64,000 nucleotides of DNA, from IMG/VR virus record IMGVR_UViG_3300045256_000829, positions 3,503 to 67,502 of that record; one strand, written 5' to 3'. Of this stretch, positions 1,214-8,735 are shown piece by piece. The position numbers were made by a program, and so were the translations under genes. This DNA is from a virus. Below the pieces are notes generated by a model. The model made no database searches and had not been told where the DNA came from. It worked only from the letters and a program-made list of their open reading frames with translations. The stretch's first letter is position 1. Each line of letters opens with the position of its first letter.

Positions 1214-1513
1214 TTACGCGCCGCTGGTTTGTGTTCTGGCCTTACGCTTGATTTGCACGGGTGTCACTGGGGCATCGTCGAGAGATTGATTCCTATTCGG
1301 TGTGCAACGTTGAGAATTCGTAGGAAGAGTGCCACCCAGTTCGAGGAAGCTGAGCGGGTTTACGCACACCTCGACTTCAGTCGAAAACGCCGATTCGGCT
1401 GCTTTTTTTGGAGAGTCTCCGAGGGGGACGTGGTGGATCAATTCTCCACAGCGCGCGCAATTTTGATCCCCCGTCTTCAGGTCAAACTGACCGGGAAGGT
1501 GAAATACGATCAT
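1214..1513 (-). CDS. Hypothetical protein (CxxC)
   Basis: Fills TerL-portal gap; start MIVFHL. Confidence 0.45.
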   Translation of the reverse strand: MIVFHLPGQFDLKTGDQNCARCGELIHHVPLGDSPKKAAESAFSTEVEVCVNPLSFLELGGTLPTNSQRCTPNRNQSLDDAPVTPVQIKRKARTQTSGA

Positions 1514-1548
1514 ACTGTCTCCGGATTGTAAGGATTGCGCCGCAGCCC

Positions 1549-3408
1549 TTATTTTATGCCCTTTGGCGTCCAGCCGCCAGTGCTGCCCTGCCCTAAAACG
1601 CCAACCGAACCGCGCGGCATCGATTCGAGCGCGATATGGCAATAAACCGAAGCGTGATAGAGATGATCCGGCGCTGTATGCTCCCAACTGGCCCGCTCCT
1701 GACCGTGATCATCTTTCGTGATAACGCGAATGGGCGAACACATCATTGCGACGAACTCGGGGTCATTCGCGATTTCAGGCGAGCAAACAACGTCCTCGCC
1801 TTCGATCGCTGCATATACGGCGTCCATCGCCATCGTGCGGTTAACTTGAACGACGTCCGAATCCGCCGCCGCGCTCTTGATGTCGGCCCGCGCCCTGAAC
1901 CGCTTGCGCTCGATCGCGGTTTGCTTCTTTCGTTCCTCGCTCGATCCCAGCGCGAACAACTTGCCGGACAGCGCCGCAACGCCTTCGGGATAGTAGGCAC
2001 GCCTGACGCGCCCTTTGAATTTCTCTGCCCATTCTTTGGCCTTGTGCAATTCAGGGTGAGCATCGACGACGCAAGAGCGAACCTTGTATCGATCCATCAG
2101 CGCCGACAATTCTGCCCATCTATCAACCGCGCCAACCGCCCGGATATAGCGCCTGCCGTCTTCGCCCGTTGAATCGATTCGATAATGCAGCTTTGCGCCA
2201 ACGTCGATGCCCATTGTCGTGCGGGTCCACTTCATTAACGCGAAAGCTCTTTCATCGTAATCGACGGCAAGCTTCTGAAGCATCGCCGCCGTAATGCGCG
2301 AGTCGGCCGGCGCATAAGCGATTCCCAAATCGGAGCGATAGAACTCGGTTTTGATCGTGGGATCGTGAGAGACGGCGAGTTCCGCCAACTCTTCGAGCTT
2401 AACCGAGGGGAAGGCGAGCGCCGGGATTTGATACCCGTGCCATTTCGTCGCCTCAGGGTTCGTAACTCTCCATCGGCCAGGTCCGAATCGGTCGATTTCC
2501 CCTTTGCAGTGAGGGCAAAAAACGGCCCACGCTGCGCCGGAAAGCCGAAGGAGTGTCCAATGCTTCCATTCTTGGTAATCGGCCCCACTGGCGCGAACGT
2601 CCCGAAAATAATCAAGCTCTGTGAACGTTCCGCACTTCCCGCACTCAACCTCCCATACCCGCTGATCGCTCTGTTTATATAAAGCGTCAATTCCCATCCC
2701 TGGCAAAGTTGGAGTCGAAATGCACAGCTGCCGCTTGATCAAACTTTGGCGCAGTCGCTTGCGGGCAAGCTCAACGGCCGCGGGGTCCATTCGGTCGAAC
2801 TCGTCCAGGATCAAAACGTCTGCCGGGAACGAAAGCAGCGCTTCAACAGACCACGCGCCGCGAAGGTACAGATAGGAATCCTGAATCTGTTTGAACTTCA
2901 CGTCGTCGAAATCCGAATCAGCGAACAGCGCGGAAAAGTATTCCGATTCGCGCTTGAGGCCTGTGAATCGCTCTTTCGAGAAGTCGGACAGGGCTTCTTT
3001 TGTCGGGAAGCAGTAAGCAACGTTTAAGCCAGCCTTGGGAACGCCTGCTTGCGCCGACCATTCCTTGTAACCTTCGACCATTGCGTGAACGGCGTAATTG
3101 ACCGCGAATTCGCTAATGCCAACCTGAGCAGGCTTCTTGACGCAGATATTCCGGTGATCATCGCGATAAACCCCTTCGAGCGGTCGAAAGCGGGCAAGGG
3201 AGAATGGTTGATCGTCGATGCGTCGATATTGCAACGCCCATTCGAGGCGCGGGAATGTGATCACCGCTTTTTCCTCGTTTGCTTCATCGATCGAATCGGC
3301 CACGCCCTGCAAAATCTCACGACGGCGCGCGAGACTGCGCCGCGCCTGCGCCTTGTAATACCAGCTATATCGAGGCGCGTATTCCCAAGGTGTCTTGTAA
3401 CGTCTCAC
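1549..3408 (-). CDS. terL: Terminase large subunit, lambda GpA family
   Basis: KKPAQVGISE Walker A, ILDEFD Walker B, ISTPT motif, CxxC...CxxC Zn ribbon, GIDVG nuclease motif. Confidence 0.93.
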   Translation of the reverse strand: MRRYKTPWEYAPRYSWYYKAQARRSLARRREILQGVADSIDEANEEKAVITFPRLEWALQYRRIDDQPFSLARFRPLEGVYRDDHRNICVKKPAQVGISEFAVNYAVHAMVEGYKEWSAQAGVPKAGLNVAYCFPTKEALSDFSKERFTGLKRESEYFSALFADSDFDDVKFKQIQDSYLYLRGAWSVEALLSFPADVLILDEFDRMDPAAVELARKRLRQSLIKRQLCISTPTLPGMGIDALYKQSDQRVWEVECGKCGTFTELDYFRDVRASGADYQEWKHWTLLRLSGAAWAVFCPHCKGEIDRFGPGRWRVTNPEATKWHGYQIPALAFPSVKLEELAELAVSHDPTIKTEFYRSDLGIAYAPADSRITAAMLQKLAVDYDERAFALMKWTRTTMGIDVGAKLHYRIDSTGEDGRRYIRAVGAVDRWAELSALMDRYKVRSCVVDAHPELHKAKEWAEKFKGRVRRAYYPEGVAALSGKLFALGSSEERKKQTAIERKRFRARADIKSAAADSDVVQVNRTMAMDAVYAAIEGEDVVCSPEIANDPEFVAMMCSPIRVITKDDHGQERASWEHTAPDHLYHASVYCHIALESMPRGSVGVLGQGSTGGWTPKGIK

Positions 3409-3905
3409 GCGTTGCCGTTCCGGATTGAGCGAATATCAAACGTGCGTAACAACTTTTCCCACTTTGAGGGATAGAGAGCGAGCAATGGCGCCTCGAAGAG
3501 ACGCCGACGCATAATCGGCGCGGCTTCCTCTTCGGACATTCGGCGGTTCGCTTGAATGCAAAGCTCGTAACTGTGGCACGAATCCCAATGCTCCCCGCCG
3601 TCAGTTCGGCCGACGCCGACGAGAAGATCCCTGCAAGCCTGTGCGGCAAGAAGCTGTTGCATCTTGTCCCATTCCTTGTAGGGAATCGCTTCCCAATCCT
3701 GTTTGGGATTTGCGAACACTCGGCGCACGAATCCGGCGGCCGCGTGCCAGGCGAACGGTTCCTCATAGGCGTTGACCGTAAACCACGTTTGAAGGCGGAT
3801 ACCGGTTGGAAGGTCAGTTTCCTCACGCCAAAGATTGTTTCCCGTGAGTTGGAAAATCGAGAAAAGCGGATTGTCGTATGCGAGCTGTTGACGCGGAGTC
3901 ATCAA
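3405..3905 (-). CDS. Hypothetical protein between TerS and TerL
   Basis: 166 aa; 4-nt start/stop overlaps on both sides. Confidence 0.7.
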   Translation of the reverse strand: MMTPRQQLAYDNPLFSIFQLTGNNLWREETDLPTGIRLQTWFTVNAYEEPFAWHAAAGFVRRVFANPKQDWEAIPYKEWDKMQQLLAAQACRDLLVGVGRTDGGEHWDSCHSYELCIQANRRMSEEEAAPIMRRRLFEAPLLALYPSKWEKLLRTFDIRSIRNGNA

Positions 3906-4537
3906 TTGCGCTCCCTGCTAATTGTGATCGGTGAGTCTTTGAGGATCTTGTCGAGGTCCTCACTCGAAATGTTTTCCCAATCGATTTCGTCGAGCGGGTG
4001 AGTTCCAGGGGCAAGGCCTGTCGCGAGCATTCCCATTTCGAGGGCGAGGCGTATGGTGTTTACGATCGAGTTCGCATTCCAGCGCGCCGGCTTGATGATG
4101 ATCGTTTCCCCGTTCTCTCCCTTTCTCTCTTCCTTCTCGATCGGGTACGCCAGCATTTCCTTGCCGCGCTTCATCAACTGCCGACCATAGTCGAAAACTT
4201 CTTCGCGGAATTCCTGCCGGCGTTTCGCCCATTTCGCGGCTTCGCTCGCGGCGTTTTCGCGAATGAGCGCCTCGAAAATTTCCTCAGTTCTCTGGTCGTT
4301 ATGAGCGAGGAAAGCACGGATGCGGGATTGCCATTTGTACTTAGTCGAATAGGAGTCGATTGTGGGGAGGCTGATACCAGTGCGTTTAACGACTTCCTTG
4401 TGAGTACGGTTCGGGCCGATTTCACAGTAAATCTTGAACGCCTCGTACGCCTTGACCGGCTCATTCGATTGCTGATGCCAGTCTCGCGCCTCGATGGGAT
4501 TCTGTTCTGGTTTTTTGGATTTACTTCTCTGTGCCAT
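3902..4537 (-). CDS. terS: Probable terminase small subunit
   Basis: N-terminal HTH (AYEAFKIYCEIGPNRTHKEV...WQSR) plus helical oligomerisation region; upstream of TerL. Confidence 0.7.
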   Translation of the reverse strand: MAQRSKSKKPEQNPIEARDWHQQSNEPVKAYEAFKIYCEIGPNRTHKEVVKRTGISLPTIDSYSTKYKWQSRIRAFLAHNDQRTEEIFEALIRENAASEAAKWAKRRQEFREEVFDYGRQLMKRGKEMLAYPIEKEERKGENGETIIIKPARWNANSIVNTIRLALEMGMLATGLAPGTHPLDEIDWENISSEDLDKILKDSPITISRERN

Positions 4538-4567
4538 ATGCGCCCCCTTAATCAATGCAGCGAAACG

Positions 4568-4621
4568 CATTATGTGTACAGTGAAAAAAAAAGGCAACCC
4601 ATGGAAACTATGGGTTGCCTT
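4568..4621 (-). terminator. Intrinsic terminator overlapping a probable terS promoter
   Basis: 12-bp stem AAGGCAACCCAT/ATGGGTTGCCTT then T-run on - strand; TTGCCT-17bp-CATAAT starts inside it. Confidence 0.75.
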
Positions 4622-4655
4622 ACTTAGTCGATTATTCCCGCTTCACCGCTCTCAT

Positions 4656-4922
4656 CTACGCGGCGCGGCTCTTTGGTTTCCTCGTCGCCTTTTTCTTTTG
4701 CGGATTCCTGCGGCCGGTATTCGGCCGCGCGCCACCACGCTTACGGACAGAAAATTCAGGACCGAGCGCCAACCGTACAATATTCTGAGGTGTCAAGGTT
4801 GAAACATACTCGCGGACCTGTTCCAATGACATGCCGGAGCGCTGAAGGGTTGACCCCGCCAGCGTGTACAGGATCACGGTTTCGGCGTCGTTAAAGTCGA
4901 GATTGTAGATTTTGAGAGCCAT
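4656..4922 (-). CDS. Small basic protein with RGGARPNTGR motif, probably DNA-binding
   Basis: AT-hook-like motif and K/R-rich tail; last gene of a two-gene cassette. Confidence 0.65.
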   Translation of the reverse strand: MALKIYNLDFNDAETVILYTLAGSTLQRSGMSLEQVREYVSTLTPQNIVRLALGPEFSVRKRGGARPNTGRRNPQKKKATRKPKSRAA

Positions 4923-4978
4923 TGTTAGTGGTAAAGCGAAAGCCAGCCAGAGCGGCTACCCTGCGCGGGCTTTTCGCT

Positions 4979-5224
4979 TTATTTCTTTCGCAGTAACCCC
5001 TTCGACGCCAAACCATCCATCGCGCTCAAGCCCGTATTTGGGTACTTACCCGAAGCAATTCGGGCAGCGCCGGAAACCTCTTTCGCTCTCGATCTTGCCG
5101 GGTATTGCCAAGCGCACCCGTCAATCTCGTCGGCTAACATTTCGAGAGAAAGCTGCTTTTCGCCAGCGGTCAAATCGGACTTTTCAATTTCGGTAATTTT
5201 AGCCTCGTATTCAGATAGATTCAT
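4979..5224 (-). CDS. Hypothetical protein
   Basis: AAGGAG RBS before MNLSEYE; directly behind a strong promoter. Confidence 0.7.
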   Translation of the reverse strand: MNLSEYEAKITEIEKSDLTAGEKQLSLEMLADEIDGCAWQYPARSRAKEVSGAARIASGKYPNTGLSAMDGLASKGLLRKK

Positions 5225-5269
5225 CTCGATTCTCCTTGTTAGTAGCAACCCCATTGCTGCGATGGGCGG

Positions 5270-5319
5270 ATTATACTCAAAGGTGAGCTTGAGTCAAGCA
5301 AATTCACCTTTGAGTATAA
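5270..5319 (-). promoter_or_regulatory. Sigma70-like promoter inside a perfect 16-bp inverted repeat
   Basis: TTGACT-16bp-TATAAT; arms TTATACTCAAAGGTGA (5271-5286) and TCACCTTTGAGTATAA (5304-5319). Confidence 0.8.
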
Positions 5320-5362
5320 ATTATTCGGTAAATCGAAAACGAATAAAGAGCAGGGCAGGGAA

Positions 5363-5638
5363 CTACGCGGCCGTTGCCACTTGATTGCCTTCGGCTTGCG
5401 CCTCGTTAATGCACATTAGGCACATCGGTAAATCCACCATTTGATGCCTCGGGCACATCTGGATTTGAAATACCCACTTGTCCCCCTGTTGAACGGGGGA
5501 GATTGCCCCTGTTTCCATTGCGCGCAGCAAGACTTGACTCAATTCGAGAGAGTACAAATCGTTCATTTGGTTTAAGTTCACTGGCTCGCTTGCCAGTGCC
5601 TCGGCCCGCGCGCTGTACGAGTTTTTCTGTGATGGCAT
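5363..5638 (-). CDS. Hypothetical protein, Cys/His-rich C-terminus, overlapping the frameshift extension
   Basis: GGAGG 8 nt before ATG 5638; CPRH...CLMC. Confidence 0.5.
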   Translation of the reverse strand: MPSQKNSYSARAEALASEPVNLNQMNDLYSLELSQVLLRAMETGAISPVQQGDKWVFQIQMCPRHQMVDLPMCLMCINEAQAEGNQVATAA

Positions 5639-6155
5639 GACTAACACCTCCGTCTCGCAACGCAGAGATTACCGCGTCGGTGATTTTCCCTAAATTGATA
5701 CTCTTCGCCTGTCGGCTGGTCATGTTCGGACAAGGCCGATTGACGATCGTTTGAGCGTAACGCTGCTTTGACCATTTAAGCCGCTTGCGAATGATAACAA
5801 AGTACCCACCTTTGGCCCTGTCCCGGCATTCGATTTCATAGCGAAACCATTCGGTTTGCTCGCCCGGTTTTTGTGGGGCATTTCCACCTAAATTTGTAGG
5901 GTATTTCGGGATTTGCCCCACGTTTTTTTGTGGGGCATTTCCGCCTAAGTTTTGTGGGGTATCTTGTGGGGTATTTCCGGGTAAACCTTTAGGTGTATTT
6001 ACGTTTATCGGATTTTGCCCCACTTTTTGAGCAGGGAAATGCCCCACATTATTTTGTAGGGCATTTCCCGCTGATTTTGCAGTCGTTTGAGGCTGACTTT
6101 TAACACCTTGAGCCGACCCAACCGCGCCTCGTGATTGCGTCGTGTCGGCTACGGT
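5406..6155 (-). CDS. -1 frameshift extension of the 6149-6898 membrane protein (repeat linker + basic domain)
   Basis: About 249 open codons; no convincing own start seen; entered in -1 frame at G_GGA_AAA (6161-6155). Confidence 0.7.
   Translation of the reverse strand, partial: TVADTTQSRGAVGSAQGVKSQPQTTAKSAGNALQNNVGHFPAQKVGQNPINVNTPKGLPGNTPQDTPQNLGGNAPQKNVGQIPKYPTNLGGNAPQKPGEQTEWFRYEIECRDRAKGGYFVIIRKRLKWSKQRYAQTIVNRPCPNMTSRQAKSINLGKITDAVISALRDGGVSHAITEKLVQRAGRGTGKRASELKPNERFVLSRIESSLAARNGNRGNLPRSTGGQVGISNPDVPEASNGGFTDVPNVH
5871..6066. repeat. Array of TTGTRGGGYATTT motifs, 6 direct + 3 inverted
   Basis: Direct copies at 5871, 5894, 5928, 5952, 5964, 6054; inverted TGCCCCAC cores at 5914, 6016, 6040. 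Confidence 0.85.
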
Positions 6156-6898
6156 TTTCCCGGCGCATCCGGTTTGCCGTCGCCGTCGCGGTCCCATTCC
6201 CAACTGGCTTTGACCAGCGCGCCGCCGACGATCGACACGAACGCTTCGAGGTACGCAAAGAAAGTCAGGAACGGCATGAACCGCTCCATGACCTCTTCGG
6301 GCGTCTCGATCTTCTTATCGCCGTCCCTGGTGATGACCTTTACCGGCGCCATATCAACAACGGGCAGCTGAAACGCGTCGGGGGTGGCGTCGGCTGATGG
6401 CCGCGGCGCTCCCAAAACTGACCGGCGCATTTGCGGCGGCAAGAGACTTAAACGCTTGTTCTCGGCGTTCAACTGCGCTGTCTGATTTTTCAATAGTTCA
6501 GATTGATTCTTCAGCAGTTCGGATTGCGCGCGATCTTCGGCCAGTTTGAGTTGCGCTTGTTTACGCTGGCGCTCATCAAGACGGTCCTCTTCTTCGTGCT
6601 TTCTGGCCATATTGGCTGAAGCGATTTCGACCTGACGGGCCAGAATCCAGTGAGAGCCGACGTTGACGCACAGCAACACAGACACAACAACGTCAAGGAA
6701 AATACAGGATCGCTGCGTTTTAAGCGTCGCCTGTCGTGAGCGCCAGGTGATGACGGTCACAACGCCTACTGTGATTAGCAGTAGGATAGTCGCTTTTACA
6801 AACGATTTGGGGAATACATCGAAGTTTGACATCCCAACCAATACCCCAGGCAGGATGACGAGGAAAATAAAAAGCACAGACTTTCGCCAGGAATCCAT
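6149..6898 (-). CDS. Membrane protein (about 4 TM segments + coiled coil, C-terminal DxDGDG motif)
   Basis: Three hydrophobic segments near N-terminus, one near C-terminus; ends WDRDGDGKPDAPGKP. Confidence 0.8.
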   Translation of the reverse strand: MDSWRKSVLFIFLVILPGVLVGMSNFDVFPKSFVKATILLLITVGVVTVITWRSRQATLKTQRSCIFLDVVVSVLLCVNVGSHWILARQVEIASANMARKHEEEDRLDERQRKQAQLKLAEDRAQSELLKNQSELLKNQTAQLNAENKRLSLLPPQMRRSVLGAPRPSADATPDAFQLPVVDMAPVKVITRDGDKKIETPEEVMERFMPFLTFFAYLEAFVSIVGGALVKASWEWDRDGDGKPDAPGKP

Positions 6899-6901
6899 GT
6901 T

Positions 6902-7015
6902 GCCTCTTTTCTTTTAGAGGCCGGGAGGCTACAAAGGGCGTCGCCCGTCGCCCGACCTACTGTAACTAGGTTTAAGAGCGCCGAAGGGTTTCAGCCTTCG
7001 ACGCTCGGTGACGGG
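6902..7015 (-). ncRNA. Candidate structured 5' leader (three-way junction + RBS-occluding hairpin)
   Basis: CCCGTC/GACGGG closes GAGCGTCGAAGG/CCTTCGGCGCTC and ACCTA/TAGGT stems; GCCTCT/AGAGGC pairs with RBS. Confidence 0.5.
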
Positions 7016-7052
7016 TGAAAGGTTAGCACAGAGGTGAGAATTCAGAAAAACG

Positions 7053-7433
7053 CTAGGACTGAGTGACCTCGCCAACCGGGTAAATAAAGCGTTTTTCGCG
7101 AGTGATTTTCTCCCCGGTGGCAAATCGCATTTGAAAATCCATAACGTATTGGCGAGCGGTCATGAGCGCGGTTTTCGCATGGGGGACCTTTATCTTGAAG
7201 GACACCTGACCAGCTGAACCGTTCTCCGTGATCACCCCATCAGAGGTAGGCGTCGCGGTAATGGTTATCTGCGCGGCCGCCTGCACGTCTGATTGCGCCT
7301 CGGTTTCTTTAATCGTCAAAATGACCTGATCAATATCGGTTCCAATGGGAGCGCCCTTATAAATGCGCTCAAAGATCCAATCATCCCCAATTACGAAATC
7401 ATTGTTTTGAATCAAATTCTCGGAAAAGGGCAC
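7053..7433 (-). CDS. Virion accessory beta-sandwich protein (BppU N-terminal-like)
   Basis: GDDW...TIK...YVMDFQMR pattern, 126 aa. Confidence 0.55.
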   Translation of the reverse strand: MPFSENLIQNNDFVIGDDWIFERIYKGAPIGTDIDQVILTIKETEAQSDVQAAAQITITATPTSDGVITENGSAGQVSFKIKVPHAKTALMTARQYVMDFQMRFATGEKITREKRFIYPVGEVTQS

Positions 7434-7460
7434 ACATCCTCCGATCAGACAAGTCAGCCG

Positions 7461-8735
7461 TTAAACCTTCGTCACTACCTTGTCGATAAAATTCAGAAAC
7501 AGCGTCCGCTTATTCGTGAGGCTCACAAACAGGACTTCGCGGTTCGTCGGCAGGAACGGTTGATAACCAGCGGGACCTTGATCGACTGTAATAGCGCCGA
7601 AGGCCTCCAAGGATAAAATTGCGGCAGGCGCGATGAACTGAGCGATCACAACCGTAAGCGAGCCGAACGATTCACCGGTCACTATTCCTGCCGGCAAGAC
7701 AGAGATTCCACCCGGCGTTAGAGTGGGAGAGCCGAAGGATTCGGCGCTTGGAATGCCTGCCAGCGTGAACGACAAATTCAGCCTTGACGACCCAAACACT
7801 TCAGATGACAGAATCGCCTGAGGCGTGAGATTCAGGTTGATTTGAGGCGCGCCAAAACTCTCAGCCGAAGGGATGCCGGCAACAGACAGAGCGATTGCGC
7901 CCGGCGTGAGCGTGAGCGCGCCGAAGGCTTCAGCCGTGCCAATACCGAAGGGTTGAATAATCAACCCTCCCGTTTGAATAATGTGCGAGCCGAACGCCTC
8001 AGCCGATGCGATCCCTGAAGCCGAGATAGTGACGGAGCCAACCGCGACAGCGTGCGAACCGAACGCCTCAGCTGAGGCGATGGCCTGGCCATAAATGACA
8101 AGGTTGAGAGCGTGCGAGCCAAAGGCCTCGTTCGAGCCGATCCCGCTTACAAAAATCTTCAAACTGAGCGAGGGCGCACCAAAATTCTCAGCTGATGCGA
8201 TGCCTAACACGGTGATCAGGTACGCCGCATTGACAGAGTGAGAACCGAACGATTCGGCCGACGCGATAGCCGAAGGGGACACGTTGATAGCGCCAGGGGA
8301 GATAATCGAGGTTCCAAAACTTTCCGCAGATGCGACGGCCGAAGGCGAAACCGTAACAGATCCAATCCCGACAACTACAGCGCCAAAAGATTCAGCCGTA
8401 GCAATACCCGAGAGCGAGAGAACGACAGCGCCAGGGGACACAGCCACATTACCAAAAGCTTCAGCCGTCGCAATGCCTGAGGGCGACAAGGCGACGGCGC
8501 CCGGAGACACGACCGCGCCGCCGAACGCTTCAGCGCTGGCAACACCACCTGGCGCAACAGTGACGGGACCGGGCGACACAACCGCATCGCCAAAAGCTTC
8601 AGAACTCGCAATACTGCCCGGCGCAACATTGACAGCGCCAGGAACAATAGTTGAGGAACCGAAGGTTTCAGCAGAGTTGATGGCCGAAGGCGATAGGTTT
8701 TGCGCGGCGGGAGTACTCAGTAATAAGAGCAGCAT
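7461..8735 (-). CDS. Repeat-rich virion fibre-like protein
   Basis: 17 GIxSAE(A/S)FG repeats of about 20-24 aa. Confidence 0.75.
   Translation of the reverse strand: MLLLLLSTPAAQNLSPSAINSAETFGSSTIVPGAVNVAPGSIASSEAFGDAVVSPGPVTVAPGGVASAEAFGGAVVSPGAVALSPSGIATAEAFGNVAVSPGAVVLSLSGIATAESFGAVVVGIGSVTVSPSAVASAESFGTSIISPGAINVSPSAIASAESFGSHSVNAAYLITVLGIASAENFGAPSLSLKIFVSGIGSNEAFGSHALNLVIYGQAIASAEAFGSHAVAVGSVTISASGIASAEAFGSHIIQTGGLIIQPFGIGTAEAFGALTLTPGAIALSVAGIPSAESFGAPQINLNLTPQAILSSEVFGSSRLNLSFTLAGIPSAESFGSPTLTPGGISVLPAGIVTGESFGSLTVVIAQFIAPAAILSLEAFGAITVDQGPAGYQPFLPTNREVLFVSLTNKRTLFLNFIDKVVTKV

Follow-up and report, generated by a model that had tools for sequence, protein, structure and literature searches.

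A membrane-protein gene probably extended by –1 ribosomal frameshifting into a conserved basic domain, in a provirus and in related loci

Introduction

Can a membrane-protein gene that ends on a slippery heptanucleotide be the first half of a longer gene, the second half of which is read in the –1 frame? The question is raised by a locus in a 64,000-nucleotide (nt) stretch of viral DNA, hereafter the window, which corresponds to bases 3503–67502 of the 67.5-kb IMG/VR provirus record IMGVR_UViG_3300045256_000829. A first-pass annotation of the window, made from its letters, had proposed that a programmed –1 frameshift extends a membrane protein of 249 amino acids (aa) to a form of roughly 497 aa. 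The comparison of the locus with its relatives leads us to regard the membrane-protein gene and the –1 frame that continues it as, probably, one gene recoded by –1 frameshifting; the shift itself and its rate are what we infer from the arrangement. The features on which the argument turns are the following, with window coordinates and the evidence for each in brackets (ORF, open reading frame; pI, isoelectric point).

6149–6898, minus strand: membrane-protein gene, 249 aa, polytopic (ORF, translation, hydropathy, homologues)
6155–6161, minus strand: slippery heptamer G_GGA_AAA, in the zero frame at Gly247-Lys248 (sequence and conservation)
6149–6151, minus strand: zero-frame stop TAG, 3 nt past the heptamer (sequence)
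5406–6161, minus strand: –1 frame of 251 codons, from GK-TVADTTQ... to ...FTDVPNVH, then TAA at 5408–5406 (ORF list, homologues)
6111–6150, minus strand: candidate stimulatory hairpin, with an outer stem 6150–6144/6117–6111 and inner pairs 6142–6137/6125–6119 (folding, covariation)
6195–6203, minus strand: possible own starts of the –1 frame, TTG 6203 and ATG 6197, 14 and 12 codons upstream of the heptamer
5852–6154, minus strand: linker-coding part, about 100 codons, rich in G, N, P, Q and K, pI 10.1 (composition)
5496–5851, minus strand: basic C-domain, pI 10.9, WFRYE...IIRKRLKWS...GGVSH...GRGTGKR...SRIESSL (homologue alignment)
5872–6068, both strands: array of a 14-nt motif (TGTGGGGCATTTCC) in seven copies with no more than 3 mismatches, of which 5 lie on the plus and 2 on the minus strand (motif scan)
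5363–5638, minus strand: small gene, hereafter the Cys/His gene, 91 aa, pI 4.6, with C-x2-H...C-x2-C, starting at ATG 5638 after GGAGG (ORF, homologues)

The frame junction and its conservation

On the minus strand the membrane-protein gene closes with GCG CCG GGA AAA CCG TAG. The G_GGA_AAA within this end agrees with the general form X_XXY_YYZ and is in phase with the ORF 6149–6898, and the heptamer, the 7-bp stem and the 4-nt spacer that the first-pass annotation had described were all confirmed in the sequence. The –1 frame is open as had been stated, over a counted 251 codons rather than about 249, and the predicted fused product of 246 + 251 = 497 aa agrees with the length that had been given for the long form.

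An in-frame heptamer in a single genome could be there by chance, and it goes beyond chance because it is conserved in relatives. Related loci were collected by a scan with a four-sequence alignment, which yielded eight metagenome relatives among 122 pattern matches and one genome relative among 17, the latter a locus in a Blastocatellia metagenome-assembled genome (MAG; G001). One locus (L008) is cut at its 5' end and was excluded, leaving eight related loci that hold the junction; three of them (L009, L010 and L011) have the same junction sequence and two others (L012 and L013) nearly the same, so that the sample amounts to about six independent lineages, the window included. In all eight an identical GGGAAAA ends the homologue of the membrane-protein gene and the conserved domain follows in the –1 frame, as would be expected if the frameshift proposed in the first-pass annotation were a property of the family; the 45 nt preceding the heptamer are not conserved among these loci. 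The zero-frame stop follows the heptamer immediately in seven loci, where it is always TAG; in the window it is 3 nt away, and in L005, where it is TGA, 15 nt away.

The –1 frame itself is arranged around the same point. In L009, L010, L011, L012 and L013 a TGA closes it one codon before the GGG, and the frame opens exactly at the heptamer; for these loci, which make up two of the six lineages, this is the only point of entry from upstream, and start codons that precede the heptamer in the –1 frame are found only in the window and in L007. Between the heptamer and the conserved domain, the –1 frames of the six lineages hold no stop in 783 codons, against 17 and 13 stops in the other two frames.

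A wider sample is available at the protein level. A profile search for the membrane-protein family returned 13 clusters of proteins of 111–550 aa, 11 of them new, and in 11 of the 11 further clusters Gly-Lys lies within the last seven residues, behind varied sequence (LGK, FGK, PGK, RGK, QGK). For these 11 the heptamer is deduced from Gly-Lys only, and in one of them (P0045) the Gly is preceded by Phe, which is incompatible with a perfect X_XXY; another cluster (P0002), which stops short of the fourth hydrophobic segment, was left out of this tally. Proteins in which the two parts are joined in one frame, which the first-pass annotation had associated with a sequencing error or a pseudogene, were found neither among the 13 membrane-family clusters nor among 36 representatives of the C-domain family, and none was found among proteins of 551–2000 aa, of which 8000 candidates were scored.

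Two further observations concern the surroundings of the heptamer. The sequence GGGAG or AGGAG stands 10–13 nt upstream of it in L006, L007 and L009, and is absent from the window, L005 and L012; it resembles, in its distance too, the upstream stimulator of the dnaX frameshift, which is Shine-Dalgarno-like. When L007 is compared with L009, 157 of 600 nt are different in the membrane-protein gene, as against 3 nt in the first 120 past the heptamer and 41 in the 580 nt that come after, a pattern that suggests recombination at or near the junction.

The hairpin downstream of the slippery site

In the window, the stem AGCCGAC/GTCGGCT begins 4 nt past the heptamer. RNAalifold, applied to seven junctions, predicted a stem of 10 pairs beginning 5 nt past the heptamer, with compensatory changes in four pairs; all 70 of the 70 cells (pairs by sequences) are paired. 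Its covariation score of 0.381 compares with 0.193 ± 0.045 in shuffled alignments and was reached by none of 500 shuffles, and slid controls, in which the partner strand was moved by 1–3 columns, were paired in only 26–64% of cells, with 0–1 compensatory pairs. Folded as single sequences, the relatives give z scores of –3.0 to –3.8, with 0–3 of 200 shuffles as good. No match to Rfam was obtained at E ≤ 1.

Taken together, the heptamer, the short spacer, the hairpin and the nearby stop match a canonical bacterial –1 site, as far as the mechanism can be read from the sequence. Most ribosomes would stop at the TAG at 6151–6149 and yield the 249-aa membrane protein, whereas a fraction would slip back by one base on G_GGA_AAA (6161–6155), with the Gly and Lys tRNAs re-pairing with GGG and AAA. 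The slip would be aided by the hairpin 4–5 nt downstream and probably by the nearby stop as well, and the slipped ribosomes would go on to make a protein of 497 aa composed of the same membrane anchor, a flexible linker of roughly 100 residues and the conserved basic domain.

The zero-frame membrane protein

Hydropathy places the hydrophobic segments of the 249-aa protein at residues 3–30, 28–54, 62–88 and 207–229. Three of them are thus N-terminal and are followed by a charged, coiled-coil-like stretch, the fourth hydrophobic segment, WEWDRDGDGKPDAPGKP and the stop. The membrane proteins of the related loci are 25–44% identical to that of the window and keep the same four segments together with a W.WDR..DG.PD motif; the tails between the DG.PD of this motif and the final GK are 5 to about 70 residues long.

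Just before the shift site lies the motif DRDGDG, in the context WEWDRDGDGKPD. The first-pass annotation had drawn attention to a DxDGDG motif at this place, and the motif is not only present but conserved in homologues, in the form D-x-[ND]-x-[DN]-G-x-x-D (DRDGDGKPD in the window compared with DRNHDGIPD, DTNHNGVPD and DANENGIPD). In the window the sequence agrees with the consensus of a DxDxDG-type calcium-binding loop, and the segment is in this sense calcium-loop-like.

The most positive loop of the protein, as read from the sequences, is that between hydrophobic segments 2 and 3. Since free-standing homologues of the added domain lack signal peptides, and following the positive-inside rule, the C-terminal end is placed in the cytoplasm; the predicted topology is N-in, C-in, and the added domain would be cytoplasmic. 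Calcium-loop-like motifs are mostly extracytoplasmic, which somewhat disfavours a cytoplasmic C-terminal end.

The product of the –1 frame

A phmmer search with the 251-aa product against 1.84 billion representative proteins retrieved 37 matches at E ≤ 0.001, among them 32 at or below 1e-10 and seven at or below 1e-30, and many of the matches align through the last residue of the –1 frame; one hit is the record's own gene call (P0003), which starts at GTG 6047. By the measure of these alignments, the –1 frame encodes a real and widespread protein domain. Members of the family consist of a variable N-terminal part of low complexity and a basic domain marked by WFRYE..., RKRLKWS, GGI.H, GKGNGKR and ARIES.L, with a tail that ends in VP.VH in about half of them.

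In the window the C-domain comprises 119 residues, with 25 Lys and Arg against 10 Asp and Glu, and an acidic tail of 29 residues closes the long form. The basic domain of the first-pass annotation is thereby borne out (pI 10.9), with the addition that the last 77 or so codons of the –1 frame also overlap the Cys/His gene. The acidic tail is not general: 16 of 33 alignment rows have no residues in its columns (...DVP...VPNVH), most of them ending soon after the ARIES.L helix and a few being cut earlier, and in these rows the overlap with a Cys/His ORF must accordingly be shorter or absent.

A codon-usage scan, for which 18 long genes of the window served as the training set, ranked the –1 frame best, weakly, from about 6180 to 5640, with 0.3–7.6 bits per 30 codons as compared with 4–16 in the membrane-protein gene. 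The structure prediction that had been proposed for the C-domain was run with AlphaFold2 on 37 sequences, and gave a model with three strands and four helices at a mean predicted local distance difference test (pLDDT) score of 76.4. Searches with the model found no clear structural relative with Foldseek against the PDB (best E 0.28), an absence that is no sign of a new fold, and none with VIA-align wide (best Z 3.5); in the ESM Atlas the best score, 0.89, was to unnamed clusters. For the three proteins of the module no family scored above the cut-off in Pfam, PHROG, NCBIfam or PADLOC, and PADLOC gave no hit for six proteins at E ≤ 0.1. One family member (P0034) has no low-complexity linker but instead, at its N-terminal residues 14–85, a MUG113/T5orf172 domain (E 2.3e-14), and this is the only domain seen.

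Alternative explanations

Several observations weigh against frameshifting and have to be set beside the evidence given above. The independent sample is small, at only about six lineages, and the case is built throughout on comparisons of sequence. The hairpin of the window is the weakest of the set: folded over 61 nt it reaches z = –1.29, which 20 of 200 shuffles match or better, and over a 106-nt stretch z is +0.42, with 137 of 200 shuffles as good. The spacer of 4–5 nt is at the short end of the usual range. A test of substitutions by codon position behind the heptamer had too few to work with (6 and 3 changes in the first 120 nt). Neither a Pfam, PHROG, NCBIfam or PADLOC family nor a structural relative indicates what the product would do. 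Finally, the heptamer G_GG.A_AA.A was inefficient in Escherichia coli according to earlier studies, as reported in a passage of PMC4066793.

The remaining objections are also those that speak for two separate genes, of which the second would start at ATG 6197, TTG 6203 or GTG 6047 and the heptamer would be incidental. The first-pass annotation had seen no convincing start for the –1 frame; this holds in that none of the candidates in the window is preceded by a good Shine-Dalgarno sequence, but the candidates do exist, since, unlike most of its relatives, the window has ATG 6197 and TTG 6203 upstream of the heptamer, as well as three GTG codons 38, 46 and 80 codons past it, all within the repeats, and the gene call P0003 begins at GTG 6047. 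Every locus likewise has an internal GTG or ATG in the –1 frame, 7–41 codons past the heptamer. All 36 of the 36 C-domain representatives are free-standing, with neither a hydrophobic segment nor a signal peptide. In addition, a distant form of the module, which was the second hit among genomes and lies at positions 1470–3016 on the minus strand of locus L015, has a membrane-protein gene, a C-domain gene and a Cys/His ORF in the same order, and there the C-domain gene has an ATG of its own behind AAAGG, in the +1 frame and 17 nt before the stop of the membrane-protein gene, in a locus from which GGGAAA is absent. The membrane protein of L015 has the same architecture and the motif DANENGIPD, the segment being matched by hhalign with a probability of 49% and E 1.7e-4. 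Together, the free-standing representatives and the separate gene of L015 imply that the C-domain can work unfused. The L015 arrangement also indicates that the three genes travel together, and that fusion by frameshifting would be specific to the clade of the window.

What two separate genes leave unexplained is the identical heptamer in the window and in eight of eight relatives amid divergent flanks, the covarying hairpin, the Gly-Lys at 11 of 11 further C-terminal ends and the –1 frame that opens exactly at the heptamer in five loci; moreover, no candidate start has a Shine-Dalgarno sequence, and a start upstream of the site is present in just two of the six lineages. In BLASTP alignments the family members P0004 and P0032 do match the window's –1 frame from close to its start onwards, beginning close to their own Met, yet this Met may be merely the first ATG that the gene caller met past the site. 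An own start at ATG 6197 had once been favoured on account of these two proteins, and was overturned by the DNA of the eight relatives, the protein alignment being ambiguous at low complexity. On balance we consider it unlikely that the two parts are separate genes in the window. An own start can nonetheless coexist with frameshifting, and the –1 frame may give a shorter, separately initiated second product.

Reinitiation by ribosomes that have terminated at the zero-frame stop (translational coupling) would feed the –1 frame with no slip. The stop lies within 0–15 nt of the site in all nine loci, and in L005 a GTG at codon +7 overlaps the TGA stop as GTGA; but in the seven loci with GGGAAAATAG the sole –1-frame codon that overlaps the stop is ATA, and in the window it is GTA, neither of them a usual start, Gly-Lys is kept whatever the distance of the stop, and the GGG of the heptamer would not be needed. 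Coupling is, for these reasons, quite improbable. Other kinds of recoding appear still less probable to us. RNA polymerase slippage on the A run would have to act on four A, far fewer than in the runs known for transcriptional slippage. Bypass behind the hairpin, in the manner of T4 gene 60, finds some resemblance in L009, which in our reading has a –1-frame AAA after the hairpin and a stop beside the take-off codon; the take-off site of gene 60 involves a stop codon and a hairpin, according to a passage of PMC5009743. In L012, by contrast, there is no AAA within 60 nt past the hairpin, the codon before the stop is not AAA in the window or in L005, and the conserved GGG would be needed neither for bypass nor for polymerase slippage.

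A frame break caused by an error of sequencing or assembly, or marking a pseudogene, would be conceivable from the run of four A, where indels can occur, and is in our estimate next to negligible. Nine separately assembled loci share the break, no in-frame version was found among the relatives, and each of the two parts shows conservation at the protein level. The sequence is also the same from another assembler: in four runs, Logan contigs carry 5350–7050 with no differing letter or gap, although these runs represent at most three samples, their equal sizes suggesting two data sets each filed twice, and may be the window's own source, which makes the contigs not independent of the record in spite of the other assembler. 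Frameshifting on the conserved heptamer thus stays the reading that we prefer.

A motif array within the linker codons

The first-pass annotation had described the linker as a repeat, and as a repeat of the peptide this does not hold: what recurs is a nucleic-acid motif, found in either orientation and, among the relatives, in two phases. No copy of the 14-nt motif with two or fewer mismatches occurs elsewhere in the window. A 10-nt core of it, GGAAATGCCC, is common to the linker-coding parts of the relatives. The number of core copies in these parts, with up to one mismatch allowed, is as follows.

Window: 5
L005: 5
L006: 5
L007: 6
L009: 8
L012: 3
L013: 1, and one further copy 3.6 kb away

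The core occurs in both orientations, which encode unrelated peptides (GNA.. and VG..), and apart from the single distant copy in L013 those loci have it only in the linker-coding part. Some of the copies in L007 and L009 are shifted in phase, and EMPT is then encoded in place of GNAH. The peptides VGNS, VGKS, VGIS, VGQI and VGHF of distant family members are, as we read them, one or two base changes away from one DNA word, and the core keeps its place even in relatives whose proteins are only about 45% identical. The two orientations and the two phases argue that selection acts on the DNA or RNA and not on a peptide repeat.

One reading of the array in terms of the neighbouring terminase genes was considered and dropped. 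In it, the –1 frame was mostly noncoding, open by chance, and formed a cos- or pac-like site or an operator array upstream of the terminase, with the ORF 5363–5647 as the sole real gene of the region. The codon-usage scan did not agree with this, the protein family found with phmmer refutes the noncoding part, and in the related loci the module is not tied to terminase genes.

The overlapping Cys/His gene

The Cys/His gene is read in the +1 frame relative to the –1 frame and covers the last 77 or so codons of the latter. In the codon-usage scan, the frame of the ORF 5363–5647 is the best from about 5670 to 5370. Each of the seven related loci that cover the region has an equivalent ORF of 88–93 aa, as has the distant L015, and the C-x2-H...C-x2-C pattern and an MxxLYSLxLS block are invariant across all of them.

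The residues of the –1 frame bear the imprint of the overlap. Over the ATG of the Cys/His gene, 29 of 32 family rows have His, Tyr, Asp or Asn (NAY) followed by a codon that begins with G, and over its cysteines the residues of the –1 frame vary in ways that keep TGY (V, L or M, then P, S, H or R). These constraints point to a real dual coding of the Cys/His gene and the –1 frame. An AlphaFold2 model of the Cys/His protein, built on only eight sequences, is poor, with a mean pLDDT of 59.8.

Possible roles of the fusion

Among the products of the module, the basic domain is the obvious candidate to bind the motif array. It is possible, though we hold it to be somewhat doubtful, that the domain binds nucleic acid, most likely the array in its own gene, and so would tether DNA or RNA to the membrane. 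More speculative again, and in our view rather unlikely as a whole, is a compact mobile module made of an anchor, a DNA-binding fusion dosed by frameshifting, an array of its own sites in the linker codons and a Cys/His partner in the third frame over the end of the fusion. In such a module the fusion would pin the DNA of the element, or its own mRNA, to the membrane, with conceivable roles in segregation, replication, control of packaging or self-regulation, and the rate of frameshifting would set the number of anchors that carry a binding head.

Three layers of information share one stretch of the locus, two of them reading frames that overlap and the third an array of a nucleic-acid motif, which makes it a good test case for the evolution of overlaps. 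The polytopic anchor is here joined to a basic domain that is the product of a separate neighbouring gene in at least one distant relative, and such a natural fusion of two partners by recoding would say that both proteins work together. Gene callers split the gene and start its second part inside the repeats, and the family is consequently mis-annotated wherever it is present. With the frameshift as the preferred reading, this is a new recoded gene family with an unusual packing of information; the full-text literature search turned up no description of it, which is not proof of absence.

Comparison with known recoded and overlapping genes

Annotated phage frameshifts are almost all those of tail assembly chaperones, and the setting is different here. 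Of 2476 joined genes in one survey (PMC10885494), 2397 are given as chaperones and 79 as hypothetical. The chaperone pair G/GT of phage lambda resembles the present gene in its nearly identical heptamer, G_GGA_AAG (as given in a passage of PMC5009743), in a –1 slip shortly before the upstream gene ends, in the N-terminal part shared by a short and a long protein and in an arrangement conserved across diverged relatives. It differs in that no homology is found (Pfam, PHROGs), that the upstream protein is here a polytopic membrane protein, that the module also occurs outside phages, and that the gene lies between the tail-fibre-like gene and the gene for the terminase small subunit (terS) rather than between the tail tube or major tail gene and the tape-measure gene, the place of a G/GT chaperone. 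The lambda shift is not known to require a hairpin, whereas here a covarying hairpin follows the site.

The OrfA-OrfB frameshift of the insertion sequences (IS) IS3 and IS911 is similar in its –1 slip on X_XXA_AAN, its downstream stem-loop or pseudoknot, its nearby zero-frame stop and its occurrence in mobile DNA, and G_GG.A_AA.A is among the heptamers of IS elements listed in a passage of PMC4066793. The upstream part is here a membrane protein, and no transposase or helix-turn-helix family was found in either part with Pfam and NCBIfam. With the tau and gamma forms of dnaX the gene has in common a bacterial –1 shift with a 3' hairpin and two forms of one protein, but the shift in E. coli truncates, while the one predicted here extends by 251 residues, and there is no homology.

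Two other phage genes offer parallels to the packing of the sequence. The lambda O gene carries the iterons of the origin of replication within its coding sequence, which may be compared with the array in the linker codons ahead of those of the basic domain; again there is no homology, the motif is here in both orientations, and the binding of the motif by the domain is putative. In lambda Rz/Rz1 a second conserved gene lies in another frame inside a phage gene. The Cys/His gene is likewise embedded in another frame and next to terminase genes, but it encodes an acidic Cys/His protein with no lipoprotein signal and no evidence of a role in lysis.

Distribution of the module

The module is sporadic in its distribution. 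A survey of genomes with alignment A6 found it in one of 401 sampled genomes of the phylum of the MAG and in two of 87 of its order, one of these being the MAG itself. Scans of IMG/VR with the membrane protein, terS and the alignments A2, A4 and A7 found the module in no other contig, and a scan with the terminase large subunit (TerL) found the contigs L003 and L004, of which L003, with its first base 52 nt ahead of terS, contains no junction.

The neighbours of the module vary. They include, in L012 and L013, an ABC-F ATPase, an erythromycin-esterase-like gene and an amidohydrolase, and, in L010, an RHS-repeat protein; small ORFs on the upstream side are common to L005 and L010. Judged by these neighbours, the module also occurs outside phages.

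Genomic setting in the window

The genes that flank the module in the window are the following.

7461–8735, minus strand: tail-fibre-like gene (phrog_13352, E 7.6e-61)
3902–4597, minus strand: terminase small subunit (phrog_6299)
1549–3408, minus strand: gpA-type terminase large subunit (profile searches)

A 126-aa ORF lies on the minus strand between the tail-fibre-like gene (7461–8735) and the membrane-protein gene (6149–6898), and the order along that strand is tail-fibre-like gene, 126-aa ORF, membrane-protein gene, –1 frame, promoter-like site, two small ORFs, terminator-like hairpin, terS and TerL. The first-pass annotation had placed the frameshift outside the tail module; this has to be qualified in that the gene lies directly downstream of tail-fibre-like genes, and in that the module is also found in loci that are not of phages.

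A blastn search of 3900–7500 against phage records gave no match. The sequencing runs that carry 5350–7050 identically are labelled hot-springs and microbial-mat metagenome. In the IMG/VR contig L003 the TerL is 65% identical, and the contig starts just 52 nt upstream of the terS homologue; this left edge may be a genome end, with a cos or pac site nearby, or a mere contig break. Downstream of the –1 frame, on the minus strand, stands a strong, near-consensus promoter-like site, TTGACT-16-TATAAT at 5297–5270, and at 4621–4591, also on the minus strand, a terminator-like hairpin of 12 pairs; between the module and terS these two elements enclose two small ORFs, at 4979–5254 and 4656–4922.

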